64,000 bases of DNA from Bacillota bacterium (GTDB taxonomy: Bacteria; Bacillota_I; Bacilli_A; Acholeplasmatales; Acholeplasmataceae), in the NCBI GenBank assembly GCA_043819945.1, contig JBDREH010000036.1, forward strand, positions 82 through 64,081, given 5' to 3'. The position numbers were made by a program, and so were the translations under genes. Below, one piece after another: positions 10,746 to 64,000 of the stretch. The notes under the pieces were generated by a model. That model had not been told where the DNA came from. It ran no database searches and saw only the letters and a program-made list of their open reading frames with translations. Position 1 is the stretch's first letter. Every line of letters begins with the position of its first letter.

Positions 10746-10759
10746 CCTTAATACTCAAC

Positions 10760-10786
10760 AAATGCATTTCTAAATGGAATGCATTT
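10760..10786 (+). terminator. Intrinsic terminator
   Basis: aaatgcatt...aatgcattt followed by T-rich run. Confidence 0.65.
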
Positions 10787-10868
10787 TTATATTTTTTTTA
10801 CTTTGTACCAGTAAAATAGACTACTAAAATCGTTTATATGGTGATTAAAGAAAAGAGAGGGAAGAAAA

Positions 10869-11909
10869 ATGAAAAAAATTTTATTAAGTTTCACCATGTT
10901 AATGATTGTCGTTGGCTTATCTTCGTGTACTGGCTTATCTGCTTTTGTACAAGCTTTTGAATTTGCATCAGATGAAGAAGTATTTTCTTTTTCAGCAATT
11001 TCAACATCAGCATTGCTTAGTGATAAAGTAGTTGAACCTTTATCAGCAACACATGCTGTAAGTCGCTTAAGTAATGAAACCCCTAATATGACAATTGAAC
11101 AAATTGAGCCATTTCTTGAGATGTTTGAATCACTTTTAATGCAAAACAACGGGTTATCAGTAGTTACAGGTGAATCTGATCTTGAGCTATATGAAACAAA
11201 AAGTGAATTTACAGTTGTGGATTTACTCGGGACTCCAGTGGTTTACACAATGTACTATAATACTATTCTATTGAATGAGGAAATAGATGAACAAGAGTTA
11301 CAGTACGAAATCAATGGCATTTTATTGGTCGGTACAACTGAATATCAAATCACTGGAAGTAAAAAGATTGAGGATGGAGAAGAAAAAATGACTTTTAAAT
11401 CCTATTTTGATGAAAACAACTATGTTATTTCAAAATATCAAATTGAAGATGATGAAAAGAAATTTTCTATTCAAGTCGTTGAAAATGGGATTACCGTATT
11501 ATCAAGTAAGATTAAAGTTGAAATTGAAGATAATGAAACTACGATTAAACTTGAATATACCGAAGGCGTCAATCAAAGCATCTATTCTTTCAAAGTTGAA
11601 GTTGAAGGTGATATCAGTGTTTTGAAAATCAAATATCAAACAGTATTTGATGGTGTTGAAGACTCAGGAAAAATTACAGTACAGGTTGCAATCGATGAAT
11701 TAACTGGAGTAGCAAACTATCAAATATATATAGAACCAGATCATGAAGAGGCTTATGAACATGAGTCTGAACGTAAATCCAATGATGATGATGACGATCA
11801 GGATGATTACGAAGATCAAGATGATCAAGACGATCAGGACAATCAGGACGATTATGATGATCAAGATGATAATGATACAGAAGACATAGTTACAGGTGCA
11901 ACAGTGTAA
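10869..11909 (+). CDS. Lipoprotein with acidic C-tail, paralogous to the anti-sigma ectodomain at 12528-13691
   Basis: LSSC lipobox; shared blocks with 12528 ORF (IEPFLEM/IEPYLEM, DLLG, VENG, YQT, YEHESERK/YEYESDRK); Asp/Gln-rich tail. Confidence 0.8.
   Translation: MKKILLSFTMLMIVVGLSSCTGLSAFVQAFEFASDEEVFSFSAISTSALLSDKVVEPLSATHAVSRLSNETPNMTIEQIEPFLEMFESLLMQNNGLSVVTGESDLELYETKSEFTVVDLLGTPVVYTMYYNTILLNEEIDEQELQYEINGILLVGTTEYQITGSKKIEDGEEKMTFKSYFDENNYVISKYQIEDDEKKFSIQVVENGITVLSSKIKVEIEDNETTIKLEYTEGVNQSIYSFKVEVEGDISVLKIKYQTVFDGVEDSGKITVQVAIDELTGVANYQIYIEPDHEEAYEHESERKSNDDDDDQDDYEDQDDQDDQDNQDDYDDQDDNDTEDIVTGATV
11784..11876 (+). repeat. Imperfect 9-bp in-frame repeats encoding a DDQ acidic tract
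   Basis: gatgatcaa/gacgatcag-like units; protein DDDDDQDDYEDQDDQDDQDNQDDYDDQDDND. Confidence 0.8.
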
Positions 11910-11955
11910 AGATAAGTGTCTAGAAAGTAAATATACTCGTGAATTAATAATCTAG

Positions 11956-12002
11956 TGTAAAATAGTGATTAGAGAGTTGCATTCTTGAAATCACTATTTA
12001 CA
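11956..12002. promoter_or_regulatory. Long hairpin abutting the RBS of the ECF sigma gene
   Basis: tgtaaaatagtgatt (11956-11970) pairs with aatcactatttaca (11989-12002); no U-tract; GAGGAG RBS follows at 12004. Confidence 0.5.
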
Positions 12003-12016
12003 TGAGGAGTTTTCGA

Positions 12017-12556
12017 ATGGTAATCAATCAATCATATATCGATAGAATCAAAAACAAAGATGATGATGCATTTGAATATATTTACGAAGCTACCAAAAGA
12101 GCTGTGTATTCTGTGATTTTTGCTATCACTAAAAATTATTTTGTTTCTGAGGATTTAATGCAGGAAGTCTATATGAAAATGATTGCTTCCATTCATCAAT
12201 ACAAAGAAAACACGAATTTTTATAATTGGATTTTGCAAATCGCACATCATCTAGCAATTGATTATTACCGCAAAAATAAGAGAAAGATTAGTTTGGATAT
12301 CAATGACTATAACGAAATATTAGTTGGCAAAGAACTAAGACCCGATGAAGAAGAACAATTTATGCAGATGATTGAAGTACTAGATGAGGATGAACGTTTG
12401 GTAGTTATTTTAAAAGTTGTTGATGAAATGAAACACCGTGAAATAGCAAAACTGCTTGAAAAACCAATTGGAACAATCATATGGATATACCAAAAAGCGA
12501 TACACAAACTCAAGAAAGTAGGAGAATATGATGATGAAAAAACAGCAAATAATTAA
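12017..12556 (+). CDS. ECF-type RNA polymerase sigma factor
   Basis: Region 2 (AFEYIY...EDLMQEVYMK...FYNWILQIAHHLAIDYYRK) and region 4 (LDEDERLVVIL...HREIAKLLEKPIGTI); RBS supports ATG 12017. Confidence 0.92.
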   Translation: MVINQSYIDRIKNKDDDAFEYIYEATKRAVYSVIFAITKNYFVSEDLMQEVYMKMIASIHQYKENTNFYNWILQIAHHLAIDYYRKNKRKISLDINDYNEILVGKELRPDEEEQFMQMIEVLDEDERLVVILKVVDEMKHREIAKLLEKPIGTIIWIYQKAIHKLKKVGEYDDEKTANN

Positions 12557-13691
12557 CTTATTTAAACAAAATATTGAATCGCATATTCCAACTGCTATGC
12601 CTAGAATTGATTGGAGTCTTGTTCTTGTTGAACAAAGCGATTCCACCTTGTTAAACTTAAGAAAACCTCATTCCAACCTGTTTCCTGGTTTTAAAATGAT
12701 CTTAAGTGTGATGTTTGTTTTTGCAATGATTATCTTTGGAATCGGTTTATTAAACACAAATCCAGTTGAAGAATCTAAGAACCCATACACGAACATTGTC
12801 TATCAAAAGACATTATCAATTTCCGCTGTATCAACAGCAACATTAATCAGCAATTATACTGCGACATCAGTATCAACCAATCAAGCTCTCAGCTTAGCTT
12901 ACGAGCTTGCTGCGACTCAAACAGTTGATACAATAGAACCATATTTAGAAATGATTGAAACAATCACAGGTCAAAACCTAGGTATTGCGATAACAAATGA
13001 AATTTCAGAGAATCCTTTATATGAATCAAAAGTTGTCTTAACCACCTTAGATTTATTAGGAAATGTAATGACATATACACTATACTTCAATTCAATATCT
13101 TACCAAGAGAAAGATAATCAAGTTGAATTTACAATTGAAGGAATCTTCTTATTTAAGAATAGACAATATGAATTTCTTGGGAAAAAAGAGATTGATGGTG
13201 ATGAAGAGATTATTGCTTTTAAAACCATTTCCGATGCCAGTAATTATGTTGAATCAAGCTATAAAATAGAAGATGGAGAAAGCAAATATAATATCAAAAT
13301 TGTTGAAAATGGTGTAATTGTATCACAAAGTAAAATTAGGATAGAAGATGAAGATGGCCAGAAAAAAATTAATTTTGAATATATCGATGGGCAAAATAAC
13401 AGTCAATATGAATTTGAATACGATACTGAGGGTGGCAAAAATATTCTAAAGGTAGAATATCAAACAATAACAAATGGTTTTGAAGAGTCAGGTCAAATGC
13501 AGGTTGAAATTAAAATTGACAGCATTACAGGACAAACTTCATATCAAATATTTGTTAGACCTGATGGCGAAAACGAATATGAGTATGAATCAGACAGAAA
13601 AATAGATCATGATGATGATGACGATGAGCAAGAACCCGATGAGGAGAACGAACGAGACGAAGAAGATGAAGAAGATGAGTCTGAAGATTAA
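12528..13691 (+). CDS. Putative anti-sigma factor, single TM, large ectodomain
   Basis: Overlaps sigma gene end; short cytoplasmic N-terminus, one TM, ectodomain homologous to upstream lipoprotein, acidic tail. Confidence 0.7.
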   Translation: MMMKKQQIINLFKQNIESHIPTAMPRIDWSLVLVEQSDSTLLNLRKPHSNLFPGFKMILSVMFVFAMIIFGIGLLNTNPVEESKNPYTNIVYQKTLSISAVSTATLISNYTATSVSTNQALSLAYELAATQTVDTIEPYLEMIETITGQNLGIAITNEISENPLYESKVVLTTLDLLGNVMTYTLYFNSISYQEKDNQVEFTIEGIFLFKNRQYEFLGKKEIDGDEEIIAFKTISDASNYVESSYKIEDGESKYNIKIVENGVIVSQSKIRIEDEDGQKKINFEYIDGQNNSQYEFEYDTEGGKNILKVEYQTITNGFEESGQMQVEIKIDSITGQTSYQIFVRPDGENEYEYESDRKIDHDDDDDEQEPDEENERDEEDEEDESED

Positions 13692-49597: not shown

Positions 49598-50512
49598 ATG
49601 GCACGACCATTCAAACAAGGCTTACAATACTTTCCTCTCGACGTGAATATTTTTGAAGATGAAAAGATACAGGATCTCAATCTCGCATTTGGTTATTTGG
49701 GTGAAATCATCTACATAAGGTTACTTTCGATGATATACGCCAATGGATACTATTTGGAAAAATCAATCGCTTCACTCGCAAGGACACTCATGAAAAGTAT
49801 TGGTGCCAACTGGACACCAAACCCAATCGACATCGAAGAGGTCATTGTCTATTGTGGGAAAGTGGGTTTATTTAACTACGATCTACTTAAAGAAGATGTG
49901 ATCACATCAAAATCAATTCAAAAACAGTTCATTTTATCTACCAGAAGAAGAAAGAATACCGGTCAGGATAAATACTGGTTACTGGATGAAAAAACGATGT
50001 TGGAACTCAGTATTTTTAACAAAACATCAAAAAACATTAATGTTGACAATAATGAGGTTATTGATAACACAAATGGCGTTATTGGTAGCAATAATCAAGT
50101 TAATGCAGACAATAACCGAGTTAATGTCGACAAAAGTACACAAAAAGAAAAAGAAAAGAAAAAAGAAAGAAAAATTGATAAAGAGGATAAAGAAGATAAA
50201 GGGCCGTACGGCCTCCCTAAATTACATTTTATTACCAATTCTTTAATCAAAAACAAATACATCGATGAGTCATCTCTAGACATCATCAAATTTAACATCT
50301 TGTTTGAAGATTTAATCCATGGGTATGGATTTGAAGATGTCTTATCAGCGGTAGATTATGTGGTTAAGTATTCTAAGAACCCTAATCCACCCATAGAAGA
50401 TAAGTTTGCTTTCATGAGAGAGTCAGTTCAAACAAATTTAAAGCAATTTGAACACAGGAGGAAAACAGCCAATGAGTCATTCGAATCGTGGATTAAACGA
50501 ACCCTTCTATAA
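49598..50512 (+). CDS. Phage replication initiator (DUF4373-like N-terminus)
   Basis: MARPFKQGLQYFPLDV...D.KI..L....G..G..IY..LL..IY..GYY...ITSKSIQKQF; low-complexity linker containing iterons. Confidence 0.85.
   Translation: MARPFKQGLQYFPLDVNIFEDEKIQDLNLAFGYLGEIIYIRLLSMIYANGYYLEKSIASLARTLMKSIGANWTPNPIDIEEVIVYCGKVGLFNYDLLKEDVITSKSIQKQFILSTRRRKNTGQDKYWLLDEKTMLELSIFNKTSKNINVDNNEVIDNTNGVIGSNNQVNADNNRVNVDKSTQKEKEKKKERKIDKEDKEDKGPYGLPKLHFITNSLIKNKYIDESSLDIIKFNILFEDLIHGYGFEDVLSAVDYVVKYSKNPNPPIEDKFAFMRESVQTNLKQFEHRRKTANESFESWIKRTLL
50038..50142 (+). repeat. Five 21-bp tandem iterons within the initiator gene (probable origin)
   Basis: taatgttgacaataatgaggt / tattgataacacaaatggcgt / tattggtagcaataatcaagt / taatgcagacaataaccgagt / taatgtcgacaaaagtacaca, followed by an A-rich tract. 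Confidence 0.8.
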
Positions 50513-50903
50513 GTGGATTGATGATGTTAGAAGAGCGATGAGAAAAGAAAAAGAACTCCAGGAAAAGTTGGGGTTCTATAATATGAAGCTTATTGGGTAT
50601 AAAGGTGTTTCATATGATCGTATTGGATCTTCTGGTTCACGTTCTTCTGGAGATAGTGAGTTGTTGTTTTGGATGGATAAAATAGATAAAACTGAAAAGC
50701 GAATTACACTTAATAATCATGTCATTAACGAGTTTAAGTCATTTGCTCAAAAATTGAATATTACAGAATCAGACATTATTAACGAGTTAGTTTTCAAAGG
50801 TATAATCAATATAGACTCACCCAAAATATCAAAATCAAATCGCTATCAAATCATCAATTCAATTTCGGTAAAACTGTTAAAAAAGAATCACATTACTCAA
50901 TAG
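50472..50903 (+). CDS. Hypothetical phage protein, possibly ArpU/RinA-like late regulator
   Basis: AGGAGG RBS gives ATG 50472; coiled coil with GVSYDRIGSSGS reminiscent of the ArpU linker; last early gene by position. Confidence 0.45.
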   Translation: MSHSNRGLNEPFYKWIDDVRRAMRKEKELQEKLGFYNMKLIGYKGVSYDRIGSSGSRSSGDSELLFWMDKIDKTEKRITLNNHVINEFKSFAQKLNITESDIINELVFKGIINIDSPKISKSNRYQIINSISVKLLKKNHITQ

Positions 50904-50926
50904 ATATAACTAAATCAGAAAACTCC

Positions 50927-50955
50927 TTCGAAAAATGCCAAAAAAATGGTAAAAT
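50927..50955 (+). promoter_or_regulatory. Own promoter of the defence cassette
   Basis: TTCGAA(50927-32)-17-TAAAAT(50950-55) with TG extension. Confidence 0.6.
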
Positions 50956-50990
50956 AAAAAAAGAGTTACTCGATTTTAGGAGGGAAATTT

Positions 50991-52874
50991 ATGATAAAAG
51001 ACATAATAGAGGCTAATAAGAGTCTGGATCCGATTAATGATAAAATAAAGCAATTAAAGGAAATTTTTCCTGGTGCTTTCCAAGGACAAATGATAGATCT
51101 GGAATATATTAAAAATCAACTGAAAGAAACCAGAGTGACAAAAGAAGGATATGAGCTGAATTTTTTAGGAAAATCATATGCTAAGTTGCTAGCTGCTTTA
51201 GAAACTGAAACTGTAATTGAACCAAATCAAACGCATAATAATTTAATTGAAAATAGTAACAGTCAAAACGTTTTTATTTCTGCAGATAATCTAGATGCCT
51301 TAAAGCATTTATTGAATTCATATTGGAGAACGATCAAAGCAATCTACATCGATCCACCATATAACACTGGATCTGATGGCTTTGTCTATAATGACTCATT
51401 CTCTTTTTCAAAAGAAATGTTAATAGAGAAATTAGGGATAAGTGATGAGGAAGCTGAAAGAGTGGTTGAATTAACAAATTCAGGGAGTTCATCACATTCT
51501 GCATGGTTAACATTTATGTATCCAAGGCTTTATTTAGCGAGACAACTTCTTCGTGACGATGGTATTATTTTCATATCAATAGATGACCATGAACAAGCAA
51601 ATTTACGTATTCTTTGTGATGACATATTTGGTGATACAAACTTTCTAGCAAATATAACTCGCGCAACTGGAACACCAACTGGTGGAGGATTTGAAGCATT
51701 TGTAAATGAAGTAGATTATTGCTTAGTCTATGCAAAGGACATTAACCAAATACGTATATCTGGGCTTGCAATGAGCGATGAAGATGCAAAAATATATAAT
51801 CAACAAGATGAAAAAGGCAGATATCTAACCAGAACACTTCGACGAACTGGCGGGGAAGATAGACGTGAAGACCGACCAACTATGTATTATGCTATTAAAT
51901 CTCCGGAGGGAACTGATATTTATCCTATTGGACCAAGTGGATATGAAAGCAGATGGATTTGTGGATCAGATAAGTACAATGAGCTTCTTGAAGATGGATT
52001 AATAGAGTGGAAAAAAGTTGATGATCAGTGGAGTGTGTATCAAAAGTTCTATTTAGAAGGTAGACAAAAGCAACCAGGTAACTTATGGACTGATATTGAA
52101 GGTAATAAGAAAGCCACAAGACAAATTAGAACTCTTTTTGATTCCATGAAAGTATTTGAAACAGCAAAACCACTTGAGTTTATAACTAAAATAATAGAGC
52201 TTAGTTGCCAAGATGGTGATTATATTTTGGATTTTTTTGCTGGATCAGCAACTACTGCACATGCTGTTATGAAAACAAATTCAGAAAAGAATTGGAACTT
52301 AAAATATATACTTGTTCAACTTGATGAAACTGTTAGACAAGGTAGCGATGCTGAAAGAGCTGGATATTCTACAATAGATCAAATTGGTTTTGATAGAATC
52401 ATTAAATCATCAAAACTTGTATCTCAAGAAAACTTGCTTTCCGTAGCTGATTATGGATTTAAGCATTTTAAGGTAAAAAATGTTACATCTAATCAACTTT
52501 CGAAACTTGATTCATTTGTACCCATTGATCTTTTTGATGAAAGAGGTGTACTTGGTGAGTTTGGACTAGATACAGTACTTACAACTTGGGTAAATCTTGA
52601 TGGTTATGGACTTTCAAAAACATGGACTAAAATCGATTTATCGAGTTACGAAGCTTACCAAATGGAAAATACTATTTACCTTCTTAATTCTAATTTAACA
52701 AATAAAGCAGTTAAAACATTGCTGGAGAAATTTGAAGATGAAAATTTCACCTGCAACAAAATTATACTTTTTGGATATTCGTTTGGTATGAGTGAAATAC
52801 AGTCTGTTAAGGATAACTTAAAGCAAGTTGAAGGTATAAAACATATCACACTTGATATTATAGTTAGGTACTGA
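50991..52874 (+). CDS. mod: Type III restriction-modification methyltransferase (Mod)
   Basis: ELNFLGKSYA, DNLDALKHL, IYIDPPYNTG, WLTFMYPRL, DFFAGSATTAHA. Confidence 0.93.
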   Translation: MIKDIIEANKSLDPINDKIKQLKEIFPGAFQGQMIDLEYIKNQLKETRVTKEGYELNFLGKSYAKLLAALETETVIEPNQTHNNLIENSNSQNVFISADNLDALKHLLNSYWRTIKAIYIDPPYNTGSDGFVYNDSFSFSKEMLIEKLGISDEEAERVVELTNSGSSSHSAWLTFMYPRLYLARQLLRDDGIIFISIDDHEQANLRILCDDIFGDTNFLANITRATGTPTGGGFEAFVNEVDYCLVYAKDINQIRISGLAMSDEDAKIYNQQDEKGRYLTRTLRRTGGEDRREDRPTMYYAIKSPEGTDIYPIGPSGYESRWICGSDKYNELLEDGLIEWKKVDDQWSVYQKFYLEGRQKQPGNLWTDIEGNKKATRQIRTLFDSMKVFETAKPLEFITKIIELSCQDGDYILDFFAGSATTAHAVMKTNSEKNWNLKYILVQLDETVRQGSDAERAGYSTIDQIGFDRIIKSSKLVSQENLLSVADYGFKHFKVKNVTSNQLSKLDSFVPIDLFDERGVLGEFGLDTVLTTWVNLDGYGLSKTWTKIDLSSYEAYQMENTIYLLNSNLTNKAVKTLLEKFEDENFTCNKIILFGYSFGMSEIQSVKDNLKQVEGIKHITLDIIVRY

Positions 52875-52876
52875 TT

Positions 52877-55780
52877 ATGGGGTTAATTTTAGAAAAAGGA
52901 TTAAAACATCAAGTAAATGCATTAATTGCCCTTAACAGGGTTTTTCGTGATGTAGATATAAAAAAAGGATCTAAATCCTTCGCAAATCCTTTAATTGACA
53001 TTGAATCTGTAAATCTGAGAAGGAATTTACTGGATTTGAAAAAAGGGCTTCCTTATCAAAATGAGAATAGCAACATAATTGATGATTATTTAAATATTGA
53101 TATAAAAATGGAAACTGGAACTGGGAAAACTTATGTATATACACAATCCGTTTTTGAGTTACATCGAAATTATGGTATAACTAAGTTTATTATTCTTGTA
53201 CCATCTGTTGCTATTAAATTAGGAACAATCAATTTTATTAATTCAAGTGAGACTAGACGGCACTTTAGAGAAATGTATGGAACAGAGATTGATCTTTCTA
53301 TACTCGATGCTAAGAAAAATAAGAAAGAAATTTTTCCCAATGCAATTCGAGAATTTGTCTCTGCATCAGGTTTAATTAAGAATCAGATTAGTGTTCTTGT
53401 CATAAATAATGTTGTGTCACAAAGTTCGTTAACAAAAAACTATTCAAGTGGAGTTGAGGGATTTTATAACCCAATTGATGCTTTAAAAGCTACTAAGCCA
53501 TTTATCATCATTGATGAACCACACAGATTTGGCAAAGATCAAAAAACATTCAACTTTCTACAGGACAGAATAAAACCACAATGTATTATTCGTTTTGGTG
53601 CTACTTTTCCAGAACTTAAAGGTGGGAAGAAAGATTATCATAATCTAGTATATAATCTGAGTAGTTGTGATTCATTCAATCAAAACCTAATCAAAGGTGT
53701 AAGTGTCACACCTTTGGAAACACCTAATGGAACCAATGTTAAGTTAAAACTTAAGTCTGTTGTTAGTAAAACTTCAGCATCTTTTGAAATCAATAACACC
53801 GGTAGAAAACGCGATATTAGTATCGAGTTTAAAAAAGGTGATTCATTAGGTCTAGCCTTTGATGCATTTGCTGGACTGAATATTGATGGTATTGGTAAGA
53901 ATTTTATTGAATTATCAAATGGTCTTTTATTAAATGTCGGGCAAGAGATATTTGCTGACATTTATGATAAGTCATATCAGGAAAGCATGATTGATGTTGC
54001 ACTAGATTCACATTTTTCAACTGAAAAAAAGAATTTTTGCAGACGAGATCAAATTAAAACAATCGCGTTATTTTTTATTGATGATATTTCATCTTATCGA
54101 GGATCGACCGATCGAACACCGTACTTAAGAGAGTATTTTGAAAGTGCATTAATAGCGAAAACCAAAGAAGAAATCGCAATAATCGATAATGGCATACCTA
54201 GAGAAGTAGAATACAAAAAATTCCTTGAAGATTCATTAAAAGACATTTCAGCTACACATGGAGGATATTTCTCACAAGACAACAGTGATAAAGAGTTTGA
54301 AGAAGAAATTGAAAAAATCCTCAAAAAGAAGGAAGAAACTATTTCATTGAAATATGCTAATGGGAAATATAATACTTTTAGATTCATATTTTCTAAGTGG
54401 ACCCTAAAAGAAGGTTGGGATAATCCTAATGTATTTACAATAGCAAAAATCAGGTCAAGTGGAAGCGAAATTTCTAAAATACAGGAAGTTGGACGAGGTC
54501 TAAGATTACCAGTAAACAGTTCATTTTCTCGTGTTTCAAATGAGCAGTTCTATCTGAATTATATCGTTGATTTTACTGAAAAGAACTTTGCACAAAGACT
54601 TATAGATGAAATTAATGGAGATCTTCTTGAGCAACTGACACTTATGGAAGATGTTGTCAAAAAAGTTGCTAAAGATTCAGGCATGTCTTACTTTGGTTTC
54701 ATGGATTTTCTTGTCAAAAATAATTTTATTAATGAGGATCGGGTTGTTAATACAGAAAAAAGAGACGATCTTTTCGCATTATATCCTGATCTTATGATTG
54801 GACTAGCAAGTGGTAAGATTGTAACAACTCCGCCAAAGGCTATTATGCATGAAGTTAAAATTGATAAGACCAACTATCTGAAACTAAAAGATTTATGGAA
54901 GTCTCTTAATTCTAAATACTTTATAACATATCTACCATTAAAAGATGATGAGATAGTTAAGGCGTTATTAGGCATCCTTAAGGACGGTATTGAGAAAAAA
55001 GTTGAAGTTGTTGCAACCACTAAAACAGTTATGTTCAACTTGCTTGATGCAAACCTTGAAGATGGAGCGCAACGAACATATTCGTCAGAAGAAACTATGA
55101 AATATAATGAATTTTTAATGAGAGTAAATAAGTCAACTAGCATACCTCTTAAGTTAATTCATCACTCATTTGTCGAGTATTACAAATTATATCCTTTCAA
55201 GGGTACGCTATTCAATAGAGCATCACTGACATTTTTTGTTATGAAGATTATTGAGTGGAAAAAGGGTACATTGTTTGGTAAGTTTAAGTATGAAAAAATG
55301 GGATTAGAACCAAGTGATACAAGCATTAACGATAAGAACTGGAATTCGCACAAAACTATTACACAAGGTTTACTCGGACGTTTATATGATAAAAATAGTA
55401 AGCCACCCATAAATTATCTATATGATTTATGTGTATATGATTCAAAGATTGAGAAAGACAATATACAATCAGATGTTCAAGGAGTTGAAGTTTTCGGGAA
55501 AATTCCAAAAGGTAGTATTCGTATACCTGTAATTAATGGAGGTTCTTATAGTCCCGATTTTATGTATGTAGTTAAAAGAAATGGTGAAGTATCTGAGCTA
55601 AACTTAGTTATAGAATCTAAAGGTTACGATAAGGCAGAAGATATACCCGTAGACGAACTATTTAAAATCAAATGTGCAGAGGTGTTTTTTAAGCAACTTG
55701 AAAGTGATGGGGTAAAAGTTGAATTTAAAACTCAAATAAATGCAGATAAAATGTATAATATTATTAGGGGGTTGATGTGA
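52877..55780 (+). CDS. res: Type III restriction endonuclease (Res)
   Basis: IKMETGTGKT, DEPH, FSKWTLKEGWDNPNVF, QEVGRGLRLPV, C-terminal YSPDF...VIESKG nuclease. Confidence 0.93.
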   Translation: MGLILEKGLKHQVNALIALNRVFRDVDIKKGSKSFANPLIDIESVNLRRNLLDLKKGLPYQNENSNIIDDYLNIDIKMETGTGKTYVYTQSVFELHRNYGITKFIILVPSVAIKLGTINFINSSETRRHFREMYGTEIDLSILDAKKNKKEIFPNAIREFVSASGLIKNQISVLVINNVVSQSSLTKNYSSGVEGFYNPIDALKATKPFIIIDEPHRFGKDQKTFNFLQDRIKPQCIIRFGATFPELKGGKKDYHNLVYNLSSCDSFNQNLIKGVSVTPLETPNGTNVKLKLKSVVSKTSASFEINNTGRKRDISIEFKKGDSLGLAFDAFAGLNIDGIGKNFIELSNGLLLNVGQEIFADIYDKSYQESMIDVALDSHFSTEKKNFCRRDQIKTIALFFIDDISSYRGSTDRTPYLREYFESALIAKTKEEIAIIDNGIPREVEYKKFLEDSLKDISATHGGYFSQDNSDKEFEEEIEKILKKKEETISLKYANGKYNTFRFIFSKWTLKEGWDNPNVFTIAKIRSSGSEISKIQEVGRGLRLPVNSSFSRVSNEQFYLNYIVDFTEKNFAQRLIDEINGDLLEQLTLMEDVVKKVAKDSGMSYFGFMDFLVKNNFINEDRVVNTEKRDDLFALYPDLMIGLASGKIVTTPPKAIMHEVKIDKTNYLKLKDLWKSLNSKYFITYLPLKDDEIVKALLGILKDGIEKKVEVVATTKTVMFNLLDANLEDGAQRTYSSEETMKYNEFLMRVNKSTSIPLKLIHHSFVEYYKLYPFKGTLFNRASLTFFVMKIIEWKKGTLFGKFKYEKMGLEPSDTSINDKNWNSHKTITQGLLGRLYDKNSKPPINYLYDLCVYDSKIEKDNIQSDVQGVEVFGKIPKGSIRIPVINGGSYSPDFMYVVKRNGEVSELNLVIESKGYDKAEDIPVDELFKIKCAEVFFKQLESDGVKVEFKTQINADKMYNIIRGLM

Positions 55781-58659
55781 TGAAGTCGATTGAAGAGTAT
55801 TTATTATATCTTGATGAGCAAAAGTTTACTCCTGATCAAAAAAGAGCCATTGTAACTTCAAGTAAAAATGTTCAAATTATAGCTTGCGCTGGATCAGGTA
55901 AGACTAGTACTATTGTATCTCGTATCATTTTTCTCATTGTCTCAGGAGTCAGTCCTTCAGAAATTGTCGCTATCACATATACTGAGAAAGCAGCAGCTTC
56001 ACTTAAACAGAAGATATATCAGGAATACGAAAAGGCTATGGGAACATTAGAAGGCTTATCCGATTTATATGTTGGCACAATTCATGGTTATTGTTTGTTC
56101 ATGCTTCAGGAATTTACAGTAGATTTCAAAAATTATGATATTCTTACTGAGATTCAAGCTAAACTACATATTAAGGCAAAACGTTGGGAAAATGGGCTTA
56201 ATGACTGCATGTACTATGTAAAAGAAAATCCGATTCCAAAAAAACTTGTTGGTAAATCTTATTCTAACTGGGAACAATTTAGTGACAGAGTTTCCGCATA
56301 TAAACAATTTCTCGATATTTCTCGCGAGTATGGAATCAAAAAACTTAACGATCCGCACTTAGAAGAATTGATTGCAAAATATGAATTTTCTCTAGCTAGA
56401 GACAAGTACTTTGATTTCACATCAATTCAAATTACTGCACTTGAATATTTCAAGAAACAGTATTTTGATGAGTATCTAAAAAAAATAAAACATTTGATTG
56501 TTGATGAATACCAAGACGTTAATGAAACGCAAGAAGAGATTATTAGATATTTTTATGACCATGGAATTACTGTTTGTGTAGTTGGTGACGATGATCAAAC
56601 TATTTATGAATGGCGTGGAAGTCGATTGAAATATATTAAGGATTTTTCAACTAGGTATTCGAATGTTGAATCTGTTGAACTATCATTGAATTTTAGAAGC
56701 AGCGTAGGTATTACCTCTACAGCTGAGACCTTAATAACAAATAATAATAATCGTCTTTTGAAGACAATGGACAGTGCCAATAACCAGAGTTATGTTAAAG
56801 GTGATATTTTAGGTATATCCTTTAATTCTAGGGAAGATGAAGTCCAATTCATAATTGACAAAATAAATCAAGTAACTGGAAGTAAGTTCTCTCAAAAAGG
56901 TAATGAGTGGGGACTAGGTTATGATGACATTGTAATATTAGTCAGTTCAGTAAAAAAAGTAAATCAACTTATAGAAAAGTTAAATGACTCTAAATTACCA
57001 TTCATTGTCGAAGGAACGCAAAATCTTTTTGAAACCCCCGAAATTATAGCTATTACCGAAACTTTTGAGATGTTGATTTTTCACTATATGCAAATGCTAA
57101 GAACTGGTGTTGAAAATGCAGATAAAATTAAAGCAGCAATAAAGAAAGCACAACAAGAAGTTGTTGATCGATGGAAAGTAGTTGTTTCAGCAGACGAAAA
57201 CCAAATTAACAACGCACTTATTAGTTTTAGAGACGAGTTTCTTGATGCTGTAACTAACCCAAATAAAGGTTATGAATACACGATTCAAAAGAATCTTCAT
57301 GATTTACTATTTGGACTCGGCGCGATGTCAGATAAATTGGATGATAAAGTTTACTATAATATTGGAAAATTCACAGAAATGATTAATGATTTTGAGAAGA
57401 TATTTCTAAAAACCTTTCCAATTGAGCGAATGGAAAAATTTCAAGAATTCCTTATTCAAGATGCGAAGAACATGTATCCTGAAGGATGGATGTCACCCCG
57501 TTTTAATCTAGTAAAAACTTTGCGAGTTATGACTTATCACCAAGCAAAAGGATTAGAGTTTCCCGTGGTATTCCTTCCGTTCTTAACGAAGGATTCTACT
57601 TTTCCTCTTACCCGCGGTGGTGGTGGTATCACAGCATGGTCAATAATTCATAACGATGCAATTAAACAAGAGTTTAATGATAAAGAATCACACCATAGAG
57701 TATTCTACGTAGGAATGACAAGAGCAGAAAAGTTTTTATTTATGACCCGTTCTCCTGGATTCTCAGATAGTGGGAAAACTCAGTATTTGACAGAAGCGAA
57801 ACAATTTATTCAAGCATCTCACTCTGAGTATGTTACTCCAGCTACATGTCTGGACATCAGTTATGAAAAATCGTCAATTGCAAAGTATTCTAATGACGAA
57901 GTCATTACTTTAAATTTTAGCTTGCTTAAGGATCTCTTTGAATGCGGATATAAATTTAAACTATCTAATGTGTTTGGTTTGTACCAACCATTGAATATTC
58001 GTATGGGGTATGGTCAATCAATTCATAGCATGTTAGATTACGTTCACAAGAATTGGCAAAAACTGAATCTTGATGATGAAAGCGTAATATGGGGAATAGT
58101 GAAACGGTTCATGCACTTACCTTATGCATCACCTAAATTGATTCAAGCAGAAACCAATAAAGCATTTGACAGATTACAAAAATACATTATCAATAATAAG
58201 CAAAGATTTAAAAACATTGTTTTTTCCGAGAAGAGAATCGATTTCAAGTTCTCAGATTACTTTTTTATTGATGGAAGAATTGACTTGATAAGAGATGATG
58301 TCAATAAAGAACTGACTATAGTTGATTTCAAATCAGAGTCTGCTTCATTGAGCGCTGATCAAATTAAGAATCAACTCATGATTTATGTTTTAGGTTATGA
58401 AAACATGAAAAGCGAGAAAATATCTTACATTGAATCATATGATATCAATGAAACAAAACCAACGAGAATACCAATATTTGATGAAGATAGAGATGGATTT
58501 CTCAAGGAACTCTCCAAGTGTGAAACAACAATTAAAACAGGTAAGTATTTACGTCACTGTGATTTAGATCCAAATCATAAAAATAGACATTGCAAAGATT
58601 GTTTTTTAAAGAATGTATGCTTAACAGGGAAAAATCCTCCATTAGCTACTTCTAGATAA
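55777..58659 (+). CDS. UvrD/REP SF1 helicase fused to C-terminal PD-(D/E)XK nuclease with Cys motif
   Basis: AGSGKT, DEYQD, GDDDQTIY.WRG, NFRS, TYHQAKGLEF, YVGMTRA; then ECG..., GRIDL...VDFKS, QL.IY, CKDC....C. Confidence 0.9.
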   Translation: MMKSIEEYLLYLDEQKFTPDQKRAIVTSSKNVQIIACAGSGKTSTIVSRIIFLIVSGVSPSEIVAITYTEKAAASLKQKIYQEYEKAMGTLEGLSDLYVGTIHGYCLFMLQEFTVDFKNYDILTEIQAKLHIKAKRWENGLNDCMYYVKENPIPKKLVGKSYSNWEQFSDRVSAYKQFLDISREYGIKKLNDPHLEELIAKYEFSLARDKYFDFTSIQITALEYFKKQYFDEYLKKIKHLIVDEYQDVNETQEEIIRYFYDHGITVCVVGDDDQTIYEWRGSRLKYIKDFSTRYSNVESVELSLNFRSSVGITSTAETLITNNNNRLLKTMDSANNQSYVKGDILGISFNSREDEVQFIIDKINQVTGSKFSQKGNEWGLGYDDIVILVSSVKKVNQLIEKLNDSKLPFIVEGTQNLFETPEIIAITETFEMLIFHYMQMLRTGVENADKIKAAIKKAQQEVVDRWKVVVSADENQINNALISFRDEFLDAVTNPNKGYEYTIQKNLHDLLFGLGAMSDKLDDKVYYNIGKFTEMINDFEKIFLKTFPIERMEKFQEFLIQDAKNMYPEGWMSPRFNLVKTLRVMTYHQAKGLEFPVVFLPFLTKDSTFPLTRGGGGITAWSIIHNDAIKQEFNDKESHHRVFYVGMTRAEKFLFMTRSPGFSDSGKTQYLTEAKQFIQASHSEYVTPATCLDISYEKSSIAKYSNDEVITLNFSLLKDLFECGYKFKLSNVFGLYQPLNIRMGYGQSIHSMLDYVHKNWQKLNLDDESVIWGIVKRFMHLPYASPKLIQAETNKAFDRLQKYIINNKQRFKNIVFSEKRIDFKFSDYFFIDGRIDLIRDDVNKELTIVDFKSESASLSADQIKNQLMIYVLGYENMKSEKISYIESYDINETKPTRIPIFDEDRDGFLKELSKCETTIKTGKYLRHCDLDPNHKNRHCKDCFLKNVCLTGKNPPLATSR

Positions 58660-58672
58660 GTAGGTGACATTA

Positions 58673-59905
58673 ATGAATTTAAACATCCAATATAGTGATT
58701 ATAAGAAGAGTATCGACATACATGGTACTGTTCTTTATCCTGCAGTAATGGTTGCACCGGTGCAAAAAGATGTTTTAAACTGGTTAATTGATGGAAGAAA
58801 AAATCTAAAGATATTTGACCCTTTCCACGGATCAGGTACAGCATTATATGAAGCAGCTAGTATCGAACCAGAAATAGAATTGTTTGGATATGACATAAAT
58901 CCTCTTGCATCACTAATAACGCAGACTAAATTACAAGGAATTGAGATTGCTACGATCGATTCAGATATCAAGTCATTGGAACTTATGTTGCAGTCAGAGT
59001 ATAAATATCCGACACTATCTTTCTACAAGTCTGAAAAATGGTTCAGAAAAGATATTTTAGAAACTTTATCAGAGATCCGTTATGCAATTATGGAAGTTAC
59101 AAGCAAGAGAAATAGACAATATTTCTGGGTAATGCTTTGTGATATCATTCGCTATTATAGCAATACCAGAAGTAGTACTTTTAAACTTCATATGAAAGAA
59201 AATAAGAAGATTGAAGCATTAAAAAACTTGATTATAAAGGATTTCCTAAAGAAAATTAAATCTTCTTTAAAATTCTACAAGAAAAACCTCACTAATTTTG
59301 ACTTAAAAAAAGGGAATTCATTGGAGTTAATTAAAGACCTTGATGATAAATCAATGGATATTATTGTTACGTCACCTCCATATGGAGACAATGCAACAAC
59401 TGTAACATATGGGCAATTTTCATATTTGGCTTTGTCAATAATCGATAAAAATGACATACCTTTTGAAGGTTGGGAGTTATACAACTGTCAGATACTTGAT
59501 TCATCTAGCATGGGGGGAACCCAATCTTTGTCATTAAGTAATGAAAATAGAAAATATATTCAATGGTATTTAAATAGAATTAAACAATCAAAAAGGAAGA
59601 AAGTAGAAAGATTCTTTGCTGATTATTTTGATTTTCTTGATAGTGCTGCACGTGTTTCTAAAGAATATATTGTAATGACTTTGGGGAATAGAACTGTTGA
59701 TAGAGTGAGGATTAATTTGGCAAAAATAACAGTCAAATATCTTCAGGATAAGGGTTTTAACTTTAAGAAAATCTTATCACGCTCAATAGTATCTAAAAGA
59801 ACGCCTGATTACATATTGGTTAACAATTTAAAAACGACGACTATGACGAAAGAATACATAGTTATAATGGAAAAACCCCTACAAACGATTGTAGCAAATG
59901 CTTAA
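58673..59905 (+). CDS. DNA amino-methyltransferase (SPPY type, probably N4-cytosine)
   Basis: H...YPA.M, FDPFHGSGT (motif I), TSPPY (motif IV); AGGTGA RBS gives ATG 58673. Confidence 0.85.
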   Translation: MNLNIQYSDYKKSIDIHGTVLYPAVMVAPVQKDVLNWLIDGRKNLKIFDPFHGSGTALYEAASIEPEIELFGYDINPLASLITQTKLQGIEIATIDSDIKSLELMLQSEYKYPTLSFYKSEKWFRKDILETLSEIRYAIMEVTSKRNRQYFWVMLCDIIRYYSNTRSSTFKLHMKENKKIEALKNLIIKDFLKKIKSSLKFYKKNLTNFDLKKGNSLELIKDLDDKSMDIIVTSPPYGDNATTVTYGQFSYLALSIIDKNDIPFEGWELYNCQILDSSSMGGTQSLSLSNENRKYIQWYLNRIKQSKRKKVERFFADYFDFLDSAARVSKEYIVMTLGNRTVDRVRINLAKITVKYLQDKGFNFKKILSRSIVSKRTPDYILVNNLKTTTMTKEYIVIMEKPLQTIVANA

Positions 59906-59956
59906 GTTGCGATTAAAGTAGCAATTCTACATTGTTGAATATTCATATTGTCTTAG

Positions 59957-60046
59957 TTACCGGTAATACTTGTGAACAGTAATGCCAACTATGAGACAAC
60001 ATATCAACAATTATCGATTAAGTAGTTGTCAACTATATAACAAGTA
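59957..60046 (+). repeat. Copy 2 of duplicated intergenic hairpin motif
   Basis: ttaccggtaatacttgtgaacagtaatgccaacta; enclosed by ttgtctta/tgagacaa. Confidence 0.8.
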
Positions 60047-60103
60047 CTATAGCCTAAAACATAAAAATAGCGATGCTTCATAAATTATTGTGCCGCTGGC
60101 ATG

Positions 60104-60270
60104 TAGACAAAAGTTGACATATTTCATATACTACAATTAGCGTGGAATACTGGCTTTAGTTGAAGCCTAGAAGTGAGAGACTCTCAAATTTGAGGGTTTC
60201 TTTTCTTTTGCAGAAAGAGTTGTAGTATTCAACCCTTGGATAACTTCAGTTTTTGATAAATTAACTGAAC
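60104..60270 (+). promoter_or_regulatory. Late-operon promoter and structured leader with premature terminator
   Basis: TAGACA(60104-09)-17-TATACT(60127-32); hairpins 60152-60167, 60177-60200 plus U-tract, 60245-60269; gaatact/agtattc pairing (60145-51 with 60224-30). Confidence 0.55.
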
Positions 60271-60290
60271 CCTGAAAGGTTGGAATCGAT

Positions 60291-60809
60291 GTGCCAAAGG
60301 TACTGGATACATATCAGCAATGGGAGGCTGATGGAGTACTTGACGAAAGAATAAAGAGTGTTCAAGACATGGTTGCTAGGCGGATTATCCAAAAGGATAT
60401 CGCAAAAGCTCTAAATATAAGTGAAAACACAATGATTAAATTGAAGCGATCTCATCCCAGATTAAATCAAGCATTCATCAATGGCGATGATGAACTGAAG
60501 TATAAACTCATGGATGCATTGTTCCAACGAGCTGTTGGGATGGAGTATGAGGAAGTACAAACCATCATTGAAGAAACCTCATCGGGAACAAAGAAACGAC
60601 TTGTTAAAACCAAGAAGAAATCTCTACCCGATTTTAATGCACTCAAATACTTACTGATAATCAAGTTCGGACGTGAATACAACGAACGCAAAGAAGAAAT
60701 AGACATCATGCTCAAACGCATAGAAAAAGGCGAGGAAACTTGGATTAATGAACATAGTGATGAAGAAACCCTCGGAGTTGTCAATATACGAAAACAACCC
60801 AAGAAATAA
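60291..60809 (+). CDS. Terminase small subunit-like / DNA packaging HTH protein
   Basis: N-terminal HTH (QKDIAKALNIS), ALFQRAVG.EYEEV...K.TKK...PD..AL.YLL pattern of phage TerS-like proteins. Confidence 0.6.
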   Translation: MPKVLDTYQQWEADGVLDERIKSVQDMVARRIIQKDIAKALNISENTMIKLKRSHPRLNQAFINGDDELKYKLMDALFQRAVGMEYEEVQTIIEETSSGTKKRLVKTKKKSLPDFNALKYLLIIKFGREYNERKEEIDIMLKRIEKGEETWINEHSDEETLGVVNIRKQPKK

Positions 60810-61959
60810 CGACGCTGCAGTTGATGCTGTAGCTAATAGTATTAAAGAGTTCGGATTCAAGGTTCCGATAGTGATCACTAAGGATCTAGTTATCATTGCA
60901 GGCCACACTAGGCTCAAAGCAAGCCTTAAACTTGGATTGGTAACTGTTCCTTGCATTATTGCTGATGACCTCACAGAAGGGCAAATCAAGGCCTTTCGTT
61001 TGGCAGATAACAAGACCGCAGAACTTGCTACTTGGGACTTTAGTAAACTTGAAGATGAACTATCTCATATCGATATGGATATGTTACAGTTTGGTTTTGA
61101 AGAGTTAGAATCAAGTGTTCCAGATAATGCAAGTGATGATGACTTCGACCCTTCAGATGAAATCAGTGAAAAACCATATTCTGAAATGGGTGATATTTAT
61201 CTATTAGGCAATCACAGAGTCATGTGTGGTGATTCTACGATAAAAAAGGATGTTCACAAACTCCTGGATGGTCAAAAGATAGATATGATCTTCACGGATC
61301 CTCCTTACAATGTGGATTATGAAGGAACAGCTGGAAAGATTAAGAATGACAAGATGGAAGACAATAACTTCTATCTTTTTTTATATGATGCATTTACGAA
61401 TATGTTTGAAGCAACCAAAGCTGGTGGAGCCATCTATGTTTGCCATGCGGATACAGAAGGTATTAACTTTAGAAATGCATACAAAAATGCTGGATTCAAA
61501 CTTGCAGAGTGTCTAGTCTGGGTTAAGAATGCACTCGTACTCGGTAGACAAGATTACCACTGGCGACATGAACCCATTCTTTATGGATGGAAAGAAGGTG
61601 CTGCCCATTACTTTATCGATGACCGTACACAAGATACTATCTGGGAATATAACAAACCTAAAAGAAATGATGAACATCCAACAATGAAACCACTTGAGCT
61701 TTGTGGCAGAGCGATTGCAAACTCCTCTAGAGTGAATGAATATGTACTAGACTTATTTGGTGGTTCAGGATCAACGATGATCGCATCTGATCAGCTTCAA
61801 AGAAAATCATTGTTGATGGAACTCGATGAACGATATGTTGACGTGATTGTTAAAAGGTATATCCGATACAAAGGATCAAGTGACAATTGCTATCTGATCC
61901 GAAAAGGTAAGAAGCTATCACTCAATACGATTGATGACTTTCAAAATTTATCACTATAG
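60748..61959 (+). CDS. ParB-like N-terminal domain fused to N6/N4 DNA methyltransferase
   Basis: NPRNND...SIKEFGF..PI...AGHTR, RLADNK; TDPPYNV, HEPILYGWK, HPTMKP, DLFGGSGST. Confidence 0.92.
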   Translation: MNIVMKKPSELSIYENNPRNNDAAVDAVANSIKEFGFKVPIVITKDLVIIAGHTRLKASLKLGLVTVPCIIADDLTEGQIKAFRLADNKTAELATWDFSKLEDELSHIDMDMLQFGFEELESSVPDNASDDDFDPSDEISEKPYSEMGDIYLLGNHRVMCGDSTIKKDVHKLLDGQKIDMIFTDPPYNVDYEGTAGKIKNDKMEDNNFYLFLYDAFTNMFEATKAGGAIYVCHADTEGINFRNAYKNAGFKLAECLVWVKNALVLGRQDYHWRHEPILYGWKEGAAHYFIDDRTQDTIWEYNKPKRNDEHPTMKPLELCGRAIANSSRVNEYVLDLFGGSGSTMIASDQLQRKSLLMELDERYVDVIVKRYIRYKGSSDNCYLIRKGKKLSLNTIDDFQNLSL

Positions 61960-63222: not shown

Positions 63223-64000
63223 ATGAAAATCATAACAAGCGAATCTGTCTTTAGTGGACATCCGGATAAAATATGTGACCAAATCAGTGATGCGATACTT
63301 GACGCAATCCTGGAACAAGACCAATCTGCACGAGTAGCAGTTGAGACAGCCATCAAGGACGATTTAGTAGTTATCTTTGGTGAGGTTACAACCACCGCTT
63401 CAGTTCAATATTCTGAAATCGCAAAACAAGTACTTAAAGAAATAGGATATACTGATGAGTTCTACGTGCTTGAAAAGATATCTAAACAATCACCAGATAT
63501 AGCACAAGGAGTAAATGAAACAGTCGATCATCAACAAGGTGCAGGTGATCAGGGCATGATGTATGGTTTTGCTTGTAGTGAAACACCAGAGTTCATGCCA
63601 CTGCCTATTATGGTTGCACACGAAATATCTAAAGAAATAGATTCAATTAGAAAAGCTAAGTATAATCATATCTTTGGTCCAGATGGTAAGTGCCAAGTAT
63701 CTGTGAGATATGTAGATGGCCAACCTTTTGCATATGACTCAATAATTGTTTCTGCTCAAACAAGACCAGAAGCAAGTCTGTCACTCGCAAAAGAAATCAT
63801 TATTGAAGAAGTACTCAAACCATTGATCAGTAAAGATCTGACTGGAATCAACATTTTAATTAATCCAACAGGTGCGTTTATTATCGGTGGACCCTATGGA
63901 GATTCAGGCTTAACTGGTAGAAAGATTATCGTAGACACGTATGGTGGTTATGCAAAACATGGTGGTGGAGCTTTCTCAGGTAAGGACGTAAGCAAGGTTG
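63223..64000 (+). CDS. metK: S-adenosylmethionine synthetase, 3' end outside window (absent from ORF track)
   Basis: Hand translation MKIITSESVFSGHPDKICDQISDA...GAGDQG...PDGK.QV...GDSGLTGRKIIVDTYGG...HGGGAFSGKD; GAGG RBS. Confidence 0.95.
   Translation, partial: MKIITSESVFSGHPDKICDQISDAILDAILEQDQSARVAVETAIKDDLVVIFGEVTTTASVQYSEIAKQVLKEIGYTDEFYVLEKISKQSPDIAQGVNETVDHQQGAGDQGMMYGFACSETPEFMPLPIMVAHEISKEIDSIRKAKYNHIFGPDGKCQVSVRYVDGQPFAYDSIIVSAQTRPEASLSLAKEIIIEEVLKPLISKDLTGINILINPTGAFIIGGPYGDSGLTGRKIIVDTYGGYAKHGGGAFSGKDVSKV

Follow-up and report, generated by a model that had tools for sequence, protein, structure and literature searches.

A conserved UvrD-Cas4-like helicase-nuclease and SPPY methyltransferase pair in a type III restriction-modification operon of a prophage

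We analysed a 64,000-nucleotide (nt) stretch of contig JBDREH010000036.1 from a bacterium of the Acholeplasmataceae (assembly GCA_043819945.1), which is called the window in the following. Within a prophage, positions 50991–59905 of the window hold a single operon of four co-directional genes. These encode a type III DNA methyltransferase (MTase), Mod, its partner Res, a UvrD-type superfamily 1 (SF1) helicase fused to a PD-(D/E)XK nuclease, hereafter the helicase-nuclease, and an amino-MTase with an SPPY motif (Table 1). Neighbouring genes overlap or almost abut, and a consensus scan from the MTase gene to the following terminase gene detected a single terminator-like site on the + strand, the hairpin listed in Table 1. 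Judged from sequence, this four-gene restriction-modification (RM) and defence cassette is real and well formed; its type III half is ordinary, and its second half is a conserved mobile pair.

Table 1. Genes of the cassette and features bordering it in the window (aa, amino acids; ORF, open reading frame)
Feature	Position	Strand	Details
Type III Mod methyltransferase	50991..52874	+	627 aa; Pfam and PADLOC matches
Type III Res	52877..55780	+	967 aa; NF012027, Pfam ResIII and RE_endonuc
UvrD-type SF1 helicase/PD-(D/E)XK nuclease fusion	55780..58659	+	959 aa from ATG 55780; ORF opens with GTG 55777, 960 aa
SPPY amino-methyltransferase	58673..59905	+	410 aa from ATG 58673; ORF opens with GTG 58664, 413 aa
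Terminator-like hairpin, 3' of the four-gene operon	60175..60202	+	consensus scan only
Left border of the cargo slot: replication-initiation gene 49598-50512 and 151-aa ORF 50448-50903	49598..50903	+	phrog_2562 4.5e-41
Right border of the cargo slot: terminase small subunit 60291-60809 and ParB-N6_N4 methyltransferase 60748-61959	60291..61959	+	phrog_309 1.9e-19; Pfam N6_N4_Mtase 3.1e-29, ParB_N

A first-pass annotation of this DNA had singled out the last two genes as a candidate RM-like system. Both reading frames exist where it had placed them on the + strand (55777–58659 and 58664–59905), and the motifs ascribed to them hold; its GTG starts, however, gave way to the ATG codons at 55780 and 58673, which are the likelier starts by sequence. 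For the helicase-nuclease, the ATG is favoured because it overlaps the Res stop codon (TGATG) and because an AGGGGG ribosome-binding site lies 8–13 nt upstream. The ATG of the MTase gene sits 13 nt past the helicase-nuclease stop, and the lengths of the two products from these starts are those of the database relatives P0005 and P0125, respectively. As the first-pass annotation had also held, the MTase is not accompanied by a separate type II endonuclease: a type II RM system requires a cognate stand-alone restriction endonuclease beside its MTase, and no ORF for such an enzyme lies 3' of the MTase gene between 59905 and 60291, where the next gene, for the terminase small subunit, begins.

The first two genes constitute a complete, ordinary type III RM system of the EcoP15I kind (50991–55780), both Mod and Res being present. 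Mod matches the Pfam families N6_N4_Mtase (PF01555, 8.7e-36) and T3RM_EcoP15I_C (PF18273, 1.9e-27) as well as the PADLOC model MTase_III (561 bits), and carries DPPY at residues 121–124, from which it is probably an N6-adenine enzyme. Res scores 991 bits against NF012027 (cut-off 564) and matches ResIII (PF04851) and RE_endonuc (PF19778, 5e-25); its GTGKT and DEPH motifs belong to a superfamily 2 (SF2) motor, and a PD...ESK nuclease follows at the C-terminus.

The third gene encodes a helicase with matches to UvrD-helicase (PF00580, 2e-52) and UvrD_C (PF13361, 1.3e-30), followed at residues 712–948 by a PDDEXK_1 nuclease (PF12705, 1e-15; Cas_Cas4 matches weakly). The SF1A helicase, the nuclease motifs and the AddB/Cas4-like cysteine arrangement named in the first-pass annotation could each be located: Walker A AGSGKT at residues 38–43 (55888–55905), DEYQD at 243–247 (56503–56517), GRIDL at 833–837 (58273–58287), VDFKS at 849–853 (58321–58335), and four cysteines, C723 (57943–57945) and C939-x2-C942-x5-C948 (58591–58620). 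Across 20 aligned sequences that are 50–78% identical to the window protein, no substitution occurs at D836, D850, K852 or C723, and C939, C942 and C948 are conserved in at least 90%. Matches in PDB and NCBIfam point towards AddA, RecB and PcrA. The AlphaFold 2 (AF2) model of the protein has a mean confidence (pLDDT) of 68, with most of the nuclease domain below 50. PADLOC v2 holds no model that covers the fusion or its pairing with an MTase, consistent with the claim that no existing defence model describes the pair: the helicase part matches generic GajB and RTasHel models (among the best 25 of 48 matches listed; GajB, 192 bits), and matches of the nuclease part are confined to Cas4 models.

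The MTase encoded by the fourth gene has an FxGxG motif I at residues 54–58 (58823–58837), a helical insert (about residues 98–205) and then motif IV, SPPY, at residues 237–240 (59372–59383). Pfam matches are weak; by PADLOC the protein belongs to the type II MTases (MTase_II models PDLC03322, 189 bits, and PDLC03360, 167 bits). Its product is probably N4-methylcytosine, an assignment suggested by the SPPY motif, by the top PDB sequence match, a DNA cytosine-N4 MTase (7e-5), and by the names that relatives bear at JGI, which hint at the N4-cytosine class. The AF2 model (pLDDT 81.5) retrieved generic Rossmann methyltransferases from PDB with Foldseek, at TM scores of at most 0.33, which give neither class nor target base. 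Catalytic residues are kept in both the helicase-nuclease and the MTase.

None of the well-known systems that share parts with this pair accounts for it as a whole. The pair resembles type III RM (EcoP15I, Mod2Res) in its logic, namely an MTase in tandem with one polypeptide that combines a motor and a PD-(D/E)XK nuclease. However, its motor is of the SF1 (UvrD/PcrA-like) rather than the SF2 type, its nuclease is of the iron-sulphur (Fe-S) type of Cas4 and AddB, and its MTase belongs to another family, with motif I, insert and SPPY in this order and without the EcoP15I C-terminal domain. AddAB, RecBCD and AdnAB likewise place a RecB-type nuclease after a UvrD-like SF1A motor, and the four-cysteine pattern is that of AddB and Cas4. 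Yet the window protein reaches 131.6 bits with addA_Gpos (cut-off 707.65) and 98.8 bits with recB (cut-off 696), and it is one 960-aa polypeptide that has no partner subunit, is sporadic and mobile, and stands beside RM genes. CRISPR Cas4 is a stand-alone protein of about 180–220 aa encoded in a cas operon; here TIGR00372 reaches 37 bits (cut-off 65), the Cas4-like domain forms part of a helicase polypeptide, and none of the adjacent genes is a cas gene. Gabija shares the GajB-like helicase, but GajB lacks a nuclease domain and Gabija includes no MTase. No GajA/OLD-TOPRIM gene adjoins the window helicase-nuclease, which has Res, the MTase and phage genes around it. DISARM combines DrmA, DrmB and DrmC (or DrmD/DrmE) with DrmMI/MII; no Drm model appeared among the PADLOC matches listed for the four proteins (best 25 of 48 for the helicase-nuclease, best 25 of 37 for Mod). 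The earlier statement that Gabija and DISARM partners are missing thus stands in these respects.

To what extent the two genes belong together became apparent from related loci. In the clade of the window helicase-nuclease (support 100/100), an MTase gene follows on the same strand, 4–80 nt downstream, in 12 of 13 distinct lineages, five of which (L004, L005, L256, L260, L262) lack type III genes within 7–8 kb. The pair is hence co-conserved both with and without type III RM genes, which answers a check that the first-pass annotation had asked for. The exception (L174) has a 272-aa ORF without Pfam match after the helicase-nuclease gene, and about 1.3 kb of contig remain downstream. Relatives with 62–94% identity (L001–L003, L093–L096, L146) show the window order Res, helicase-nuclease, MTase. 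In L004 (69% identical) the pair stands alone and is followed by a gene for an OLD/AriA-like ATPase. A subclade at about 50% identity, to which Anaerolentibacter hominis and the metagenome contigs L256–L264 belong, always has an MTase of 438–457 aa directly downstream and no type III genes; its settings include integrases, a serine recombinase and an island with type I RM and Septu (L260). An endonuclease conserved but hidden after the MTase was ruled out, as the downstream genes vary across 13 related loci. The helicase-nuclease is sporadic, occurring in one of 399 genomes of the host's class (the host itself) and in three of 351 genomes of the Lachnospiraceae-type family of Anaerolentibacter; these samples are too sparse for statistics. 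The 50,697 deposited phage genomes contain no full-length relative of the helicase-nuclease and no relative of the window MTase.

For a wider view we used a sample of 41 full-length homologues, 22–33% identical to the window protein, from species genomes and viral contigs of many phyla. The family-alignment scan of genome contigs used generic helicase patterns and returned, among the matches listed, only proteins of at most 33% identity, missing the close relatives. An MTase gene is adjacent in 36 of the 41, usually directly downstream and overlapping, and complete type III-like Mod and Res genes stand beside 31, the usual order being helicase-nuclease, Mod, Res, and the gene ends overlapping; in three further cases Mod lies at a contig end. 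The window order, Mod, Res, helicase-nuclease, MTase, differs from this and combines both layouts. On plasmids, the helicase-nuclease adjoins an MspI-family restriction endonuclease (REase), Dcm and Vsr in Priestia and an MvaI/BcnI REase and Dcm in Vibrio, and it has the three-gene layout in Athalassotoga. That the helicase-nuclease of the three-gene systems stands in for a nuclease lost from Res could be ruled out, as most Res partners keep the PD..E.K motif. In a maximum-likelihood tree of 44 sequences, with long branches and no housekeeping outgroup, the window clade is placed among type III-associated members, but its sister grouping is supported at only 86/70. Since the MTase-only clade lies among type III-associated clades, the type III link looks older and the SPPY-type MTase looks like a later partner.

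The fusion family itself is known. Hudaiberdiev, Shmakov, Wolf, Terns, Makarova and Koonin (2017; BMC Evol Biol 17:232, PMC5704561) describe, in the passages that concern it, a monophyletic UvrD-Cas4 fusion family whose commonest neighbourhood is type III Mod and Res, followed by Dcm/Vsr, and predict an ancillary defence role. The window protein fits their description, having an SF1 UvrD helicase and a C-terminal pfam12705 Cas4-like nuclease with four cysteines, and adjoining RM genes on both sides (Res overlapping upstream, the MTase directly downstream). In the tree described above it stands together with Mod/Res-associated members, at the support given there. The first-pass annotation's term "undescribed" therefore has to be dropped for the family, its contexts and its predicted role, and our count of 31 among 41 reproduces the Mod/Res link. 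What differs from those passages, which give type III and Dcm/Vsr contexts, is that the window clade keeps a dedicated SPPY amino-MTase directly downstream, often as the sole RM gene. Pairing with the SPPY MTase family is mentioned neither in the relevant passages of PMC5704561 nor in the other literature searched; an experimental study of the UvrD-Cas4-like fusion or of the helicase-nuclease/MTase pair was likewise not found there, and a 2025 EcoSal review of RM mentions neither UvrD nor Cas4 nor MORC. Thus, the UvrD-Cas4-like family and its type III link have been known since 2017, and the pairing with the SPPY MTase family, with signs of an exchange of methylase alleles described below, is new by the literature searched.

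The MTase has a broader range of partners than the helicase-nuclease alone. Among 80 metagenome loci surveyed, a helicase-nuclease precedes those MTases that share at least 62% identity with the window enzyme, and those with 41–53% identity adjoin a protein of about 700 aa with a GHKL/HATPase_c_3 domain in more than 55 loci (in the range L101–L171, with L090–L092 as further examples). Two such GHKL proteins were scanned (L090, L091); the C-termini match the PADLOC model PD-Lambda-5_A, and one N-terminus also matches an REase_II model. The GHKL-ATPase and MTase combination is a widespread two-gene RM-like module. GHKL/MORC-type ATPase modules with MTases were predicted to be RM-like by Iyer, Abhiman and Aravind in 2008, as cited in the Tiamat preprint (10.64898/2026.09.30.754977), which recalls this MORC/paraMORC prediction and describes GHL ATPases that adjoin SF1 helicase-nuclease fusions and MTases. 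Those modules share with the window the MTase family, the tight two-gene layout and an NTPase-type partner; in contrast, the window has no GHKL protein, and the partner is the helicase-nuclease. Both partners meet at two loci, L094 (7253–11321) and L095 (4416–8486), where Res, helicase-nuclease and MTase are directly followed by genes for a GHKL ATPase of 774 aa and for another protein, about 590 aa long and without family assignment. These consecutive rows of helicase-nuclease, MTase and GHKL protein link the two themes. Remoter members of the MTase family accompany MvaI/BcnI-type enzymes or an unnamed ATP-binding protein. In an MTase tree, the window-type enzymes nest inside the GHKL-partnered ones, and MTases of the sister helicase-nuclease subclade form a separate branch with only about 30% identity. 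By these sequence comparisons, the MTase family appears to be an RM methylase family with changing partners that is not specific to the helicase-nuclease.

Comparison of L094 with L096 revealed a replacement of the methylase. The helicase-nucleases of the two loci are 98.3% identical and the Res proteins 91.5%, whereas the MTases share 62.9%; nucleotide identity drops from 94–99% to 62–64% exactly at the boundary between the helicase-nuclease and MTase genes. The alignment thus indicates that the MTase allele was replaced and the slot 3' of the helicase-nuclease gene was kept, which is the pattern expected if the methylase sets the specificity and the motor-nuclease reads no sequence.

The cassette lies between the replication and the packaging genes of the prophage. 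Upstream are genes for a serine recombinase, a helix-turn-helix (HTH) repressor, a tyrosine recombinase, a Bro-N/KilAC antirepressor and the replication initiator; downstream follow the terminase small subunit, the ParB-MTase and MetK. Fourteen IMG/VR contigs share the terminase and the ParB-MTase at 91–97% identity, and 11 of them also keep replication-module genes upstream of the slot. The left-border genes (replication initiator and 151-aa ORF) are conserved in sibling phages with other cargo, and those of the right border in at least 14 sibling contigs. None of the four cassette genes occurs in these 14 contigs. In the siblings (L271–L284) the slot that corresponds to 50903–60291 instead holds the HsdM/S/R genes of a type I system, a type II REase plus an MTase, one of two type IIG enzymes (the first accompanied by an MTase and a Ppl-like protein), or a lone MTase. 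In the groundwater run X2, assembler depth is 140–237 in the flanks, 16–57 in Mod and Res and 1–10 in the third and fourth genes, i.e. the flanks are about 10–50 times deeper than the cassette, and one contig joins 50684 to 59963, representing an abundant sibling without the cassette. A second joint, found in X2 and also in X3, connects 50810 to 56277 with 37 other letters between; this variant would have lost Mod, Res and the first ~500 nt of the helicase-nuclease gene. The cargo of the siblings, the depths and the joint indicate that the four genes are exchangeable cargo in a slot used for restriction systems; in this phage family, the interval from the replication genes to the gene for the terminase small subunit is a hotspot of RM cargo. 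This agrees with the defence-like setting proposed for the cassette. The single metatranscriptome listed held 3% of the words. Besides the genes of the slot, the prophage carries the ParB-N6_N4 methyltransferase gene and the 5' part of a gene for the S-adenosylmethionine (SAM) synthetase MetK (63223–63999). The element totals three DNA MTases (Mod, the SPPY enzyme and the ParB-MTase) plus its own SAM supply.

How may the third and fourth genes work? We put about even weight on the reading that the helicase-nuclease and the MTase would form a modular ATP-dependent RM-like unit that is stacked on the type III system. We favour this reading because there are loci with the MTase as the only RM gene, because gene order and coupling are conserved, and because partners are swapped and the methylase allele has been replaced. 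The wider context of the pair also comprises type I RM and Septu (L260), the OLD/AriA-like ATPase of L004, and integrase or serine recombinase elements. Under this reading, the SPPY MTase would methylate a short motif of its own in the DNA of host and prophage, probably to N4-methylcytosine, and would probably also recognise the site for its partner, in the way Mod does for Res. The "R" position that GHKL ATPases or classical endonucleases hold for this MTase family would be taken by the UvrD-Cas4-like protein: its SF1 motor would unwind unmarked DNA and feed the Fe-S PD-(D/E)XK nuclease. Gating of the nuclease by methylation, contact between the two proteins, protection against phage and synergy with the type III system are likewise predictions. 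With two systems in one operon and the helicase-nuclease translationally coupled to Res, incoming DNA would have to bear two independent marks. The four genes would be defence cargo of the prophage hotspot, and the last two a separate mobile two-gene unit. A bolder version, which we regard as tentative and rather doubtful, holds that the UvrD-Cas4-like protein is an exchangeable, sequence-blind "Res-like" SF1 motor-nuclease recruited by whichever MTase is encoded directly downstream, be it a long Mod, as in the three-gene systems, or an MvaI-like SPPY MTase, as in the window. If true, such systems would be a separate class of ATP-dependent RM in which the methylase is hub and specificity subunit, SF1 UvrD-Cas4, SF2 Res and GHKL ATPases would be interchangeable effectors, and the cassette of the window would be a natural system with two hubs and two marks.

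Several observations weigh against a self-contained RM-like unit. The helicase-nuclease has no recognisable domain for reading DNA sequence or methylation. No fusion of it with the MTase was found among 130 matches to a concatenated query, scored over residues 600–1370, all of which are 775–963 aa long and cover at most 47% of that region. The 31 homologues beside complete type III-like genes, and those beside complete type II systems with an MspI or MvaI/BcnI REase and Dcm, have the helicase-nuclease as an extra component and not as the sole nuclease, and it is hard to see how a single protein could dock alike on a beta-class Mod, an alpha-like MTase and a C5 Dcm. Four of the 41 homologues have no MTase nearby. 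Conversely, the phage recombination module L099 (1037–4513), with ERF, a small PD-(D/E)XK protein, DUF1351 and NinB, includes an MTase 62% identical to that of the window and no helicase-nuclease; this MTase looks like an orphan phage methylase.

Alternatively, the helicase-nuclease would be a methylation-blind accessory that loads on the double-strand ends or nicks made by a neighbouring restriction enzyme, here Res, and degrades the DNA processively in the manner of RecBCD or AddAB. Restriction would thereby become irreversible, and the SPPY MTase would provide a second independent mark, as a remnant of another RM system or an anti-restriction methylase of the phage. We consider this possible, but less than probable. 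It would suit the many homologues next to RM systems that are complete by themselves, including a nuclease-bearing Res, the position of the MTase-only clade inside type III-associated clades, the overlap of the helicase-nuclease start with the Res stop in the window, the domain organisation and similarities shared with AddA, RecB and PcrA, the lack of a sequence-reading domain and the phage orphan of L099. Moreover, the host genome (G000, 99.97% complete) has no AddA, AddB or RecB-type enzyme; what it does have is a PcrA-like gene and, on contig C27, another UvrD-like ORF. Three genomes of the same genus (G095, G107, G151) also appear to lack such enzymes, with no match for AddB in any of the four, so that no other dedicated shredder of a broken phage genome would be at hand. 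Yet three Lachnospiraceae carriers of the pair do have AddB, which rules out that the pair compensates for absent AddAB in general. Other results are at odds with such an accessory: in at least five independent lineages the pair occurs alone and no conserved endonuclease gene is nearby, and the MTase slot directly downstream is retained despite the replacement of its allele. The accessory role and the RM-like unit, both proposed in the first-pass annotation, need not exclude each other within the four-gene cassette.

It appears improbable that the two genes serve the phage itself, the helicase-nuclease in replication or recombination of the prophage, like phage exonucleases of the RecB/Cas4 type and PcrA-like helicases, and the MTase as an orphan methylase against host restriction, with neither acting in defence. 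Their place between replication and packaging modules would agree with this, as would the PHROGs families into which the halves of the long protein fall ("DNA helicase" and "exonuclease"), the homologue L218 amid phage replication genes without an MTase, the MTase in the ERF/NinB module of L099, and the ParB-MTase and MetK genes of the prophage. However, siblings with the same backbone lack both genes and have RM systems in the slot instead, which argues against their belonging to the phage core; defence islands and integrative elements outside phages commonly carry the pair, and deposited phage genomes contain no full-length relative. Least credible of all is a chance accumulation of a type III system, a helicase-nuclease and an MTase in one hotspot. 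The variable content of the slot and the GC content of the cassette, 0.30–0.34 as compared to 0.36–0.40 in the flanks, would be in keeping with it, but the co-occurrence counts go most of the way to refuting it: 12 of 13 lineages of the clade share the gene order and the close spacing, and an MTase is adjacent to 36 of 41 homologues across phyla. The overlapping or nearly abutting genes with one terminator-like site downstream speak against it as well.

If the pair restricts DNA on its own, it would add an SF1-helicase-based class to the ATP-dependent restriction enzymes and provide a function for a widespread helicase-nuclease family for which a defence role was predicted in 2017. One MTase family that serves helicase-nuclease, GHKL-ATPase and classical endonuclease partners could be a convenient system for learning how a methylase passes specificity to unrelated effectors. 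The four-gene cassette offers a natural test of stacking, i.e. whether the helicase-nuclease boosts type III restriction, for example in hosts without AddAB and RecBCD, and the alternative RM cargoes of the phage hotspot make it a small but clear-cut example of defence-gene exchange among siblings.

Some related loci display additional features. In L001, a relative with 78% identity, an IS21-type element with rve and IstB (10663–12757) separates the cassette from the terminase gene, and the end of the MTase gene overlaps with an unannotated ORF of 354 aa. The Res partners at L007 (9987–13283) and L014 (8575–12186) carry a C-terminal Peptidase_S24 (LexA-like) domain after the PD..E.K motif. Finally, RadC/JAB genes adjoin the helicase-nuclease gene or lie just upstream of it in unrelated loci (L008, 7248–7985; L262, 5101–5730; L263, 1039–1668).

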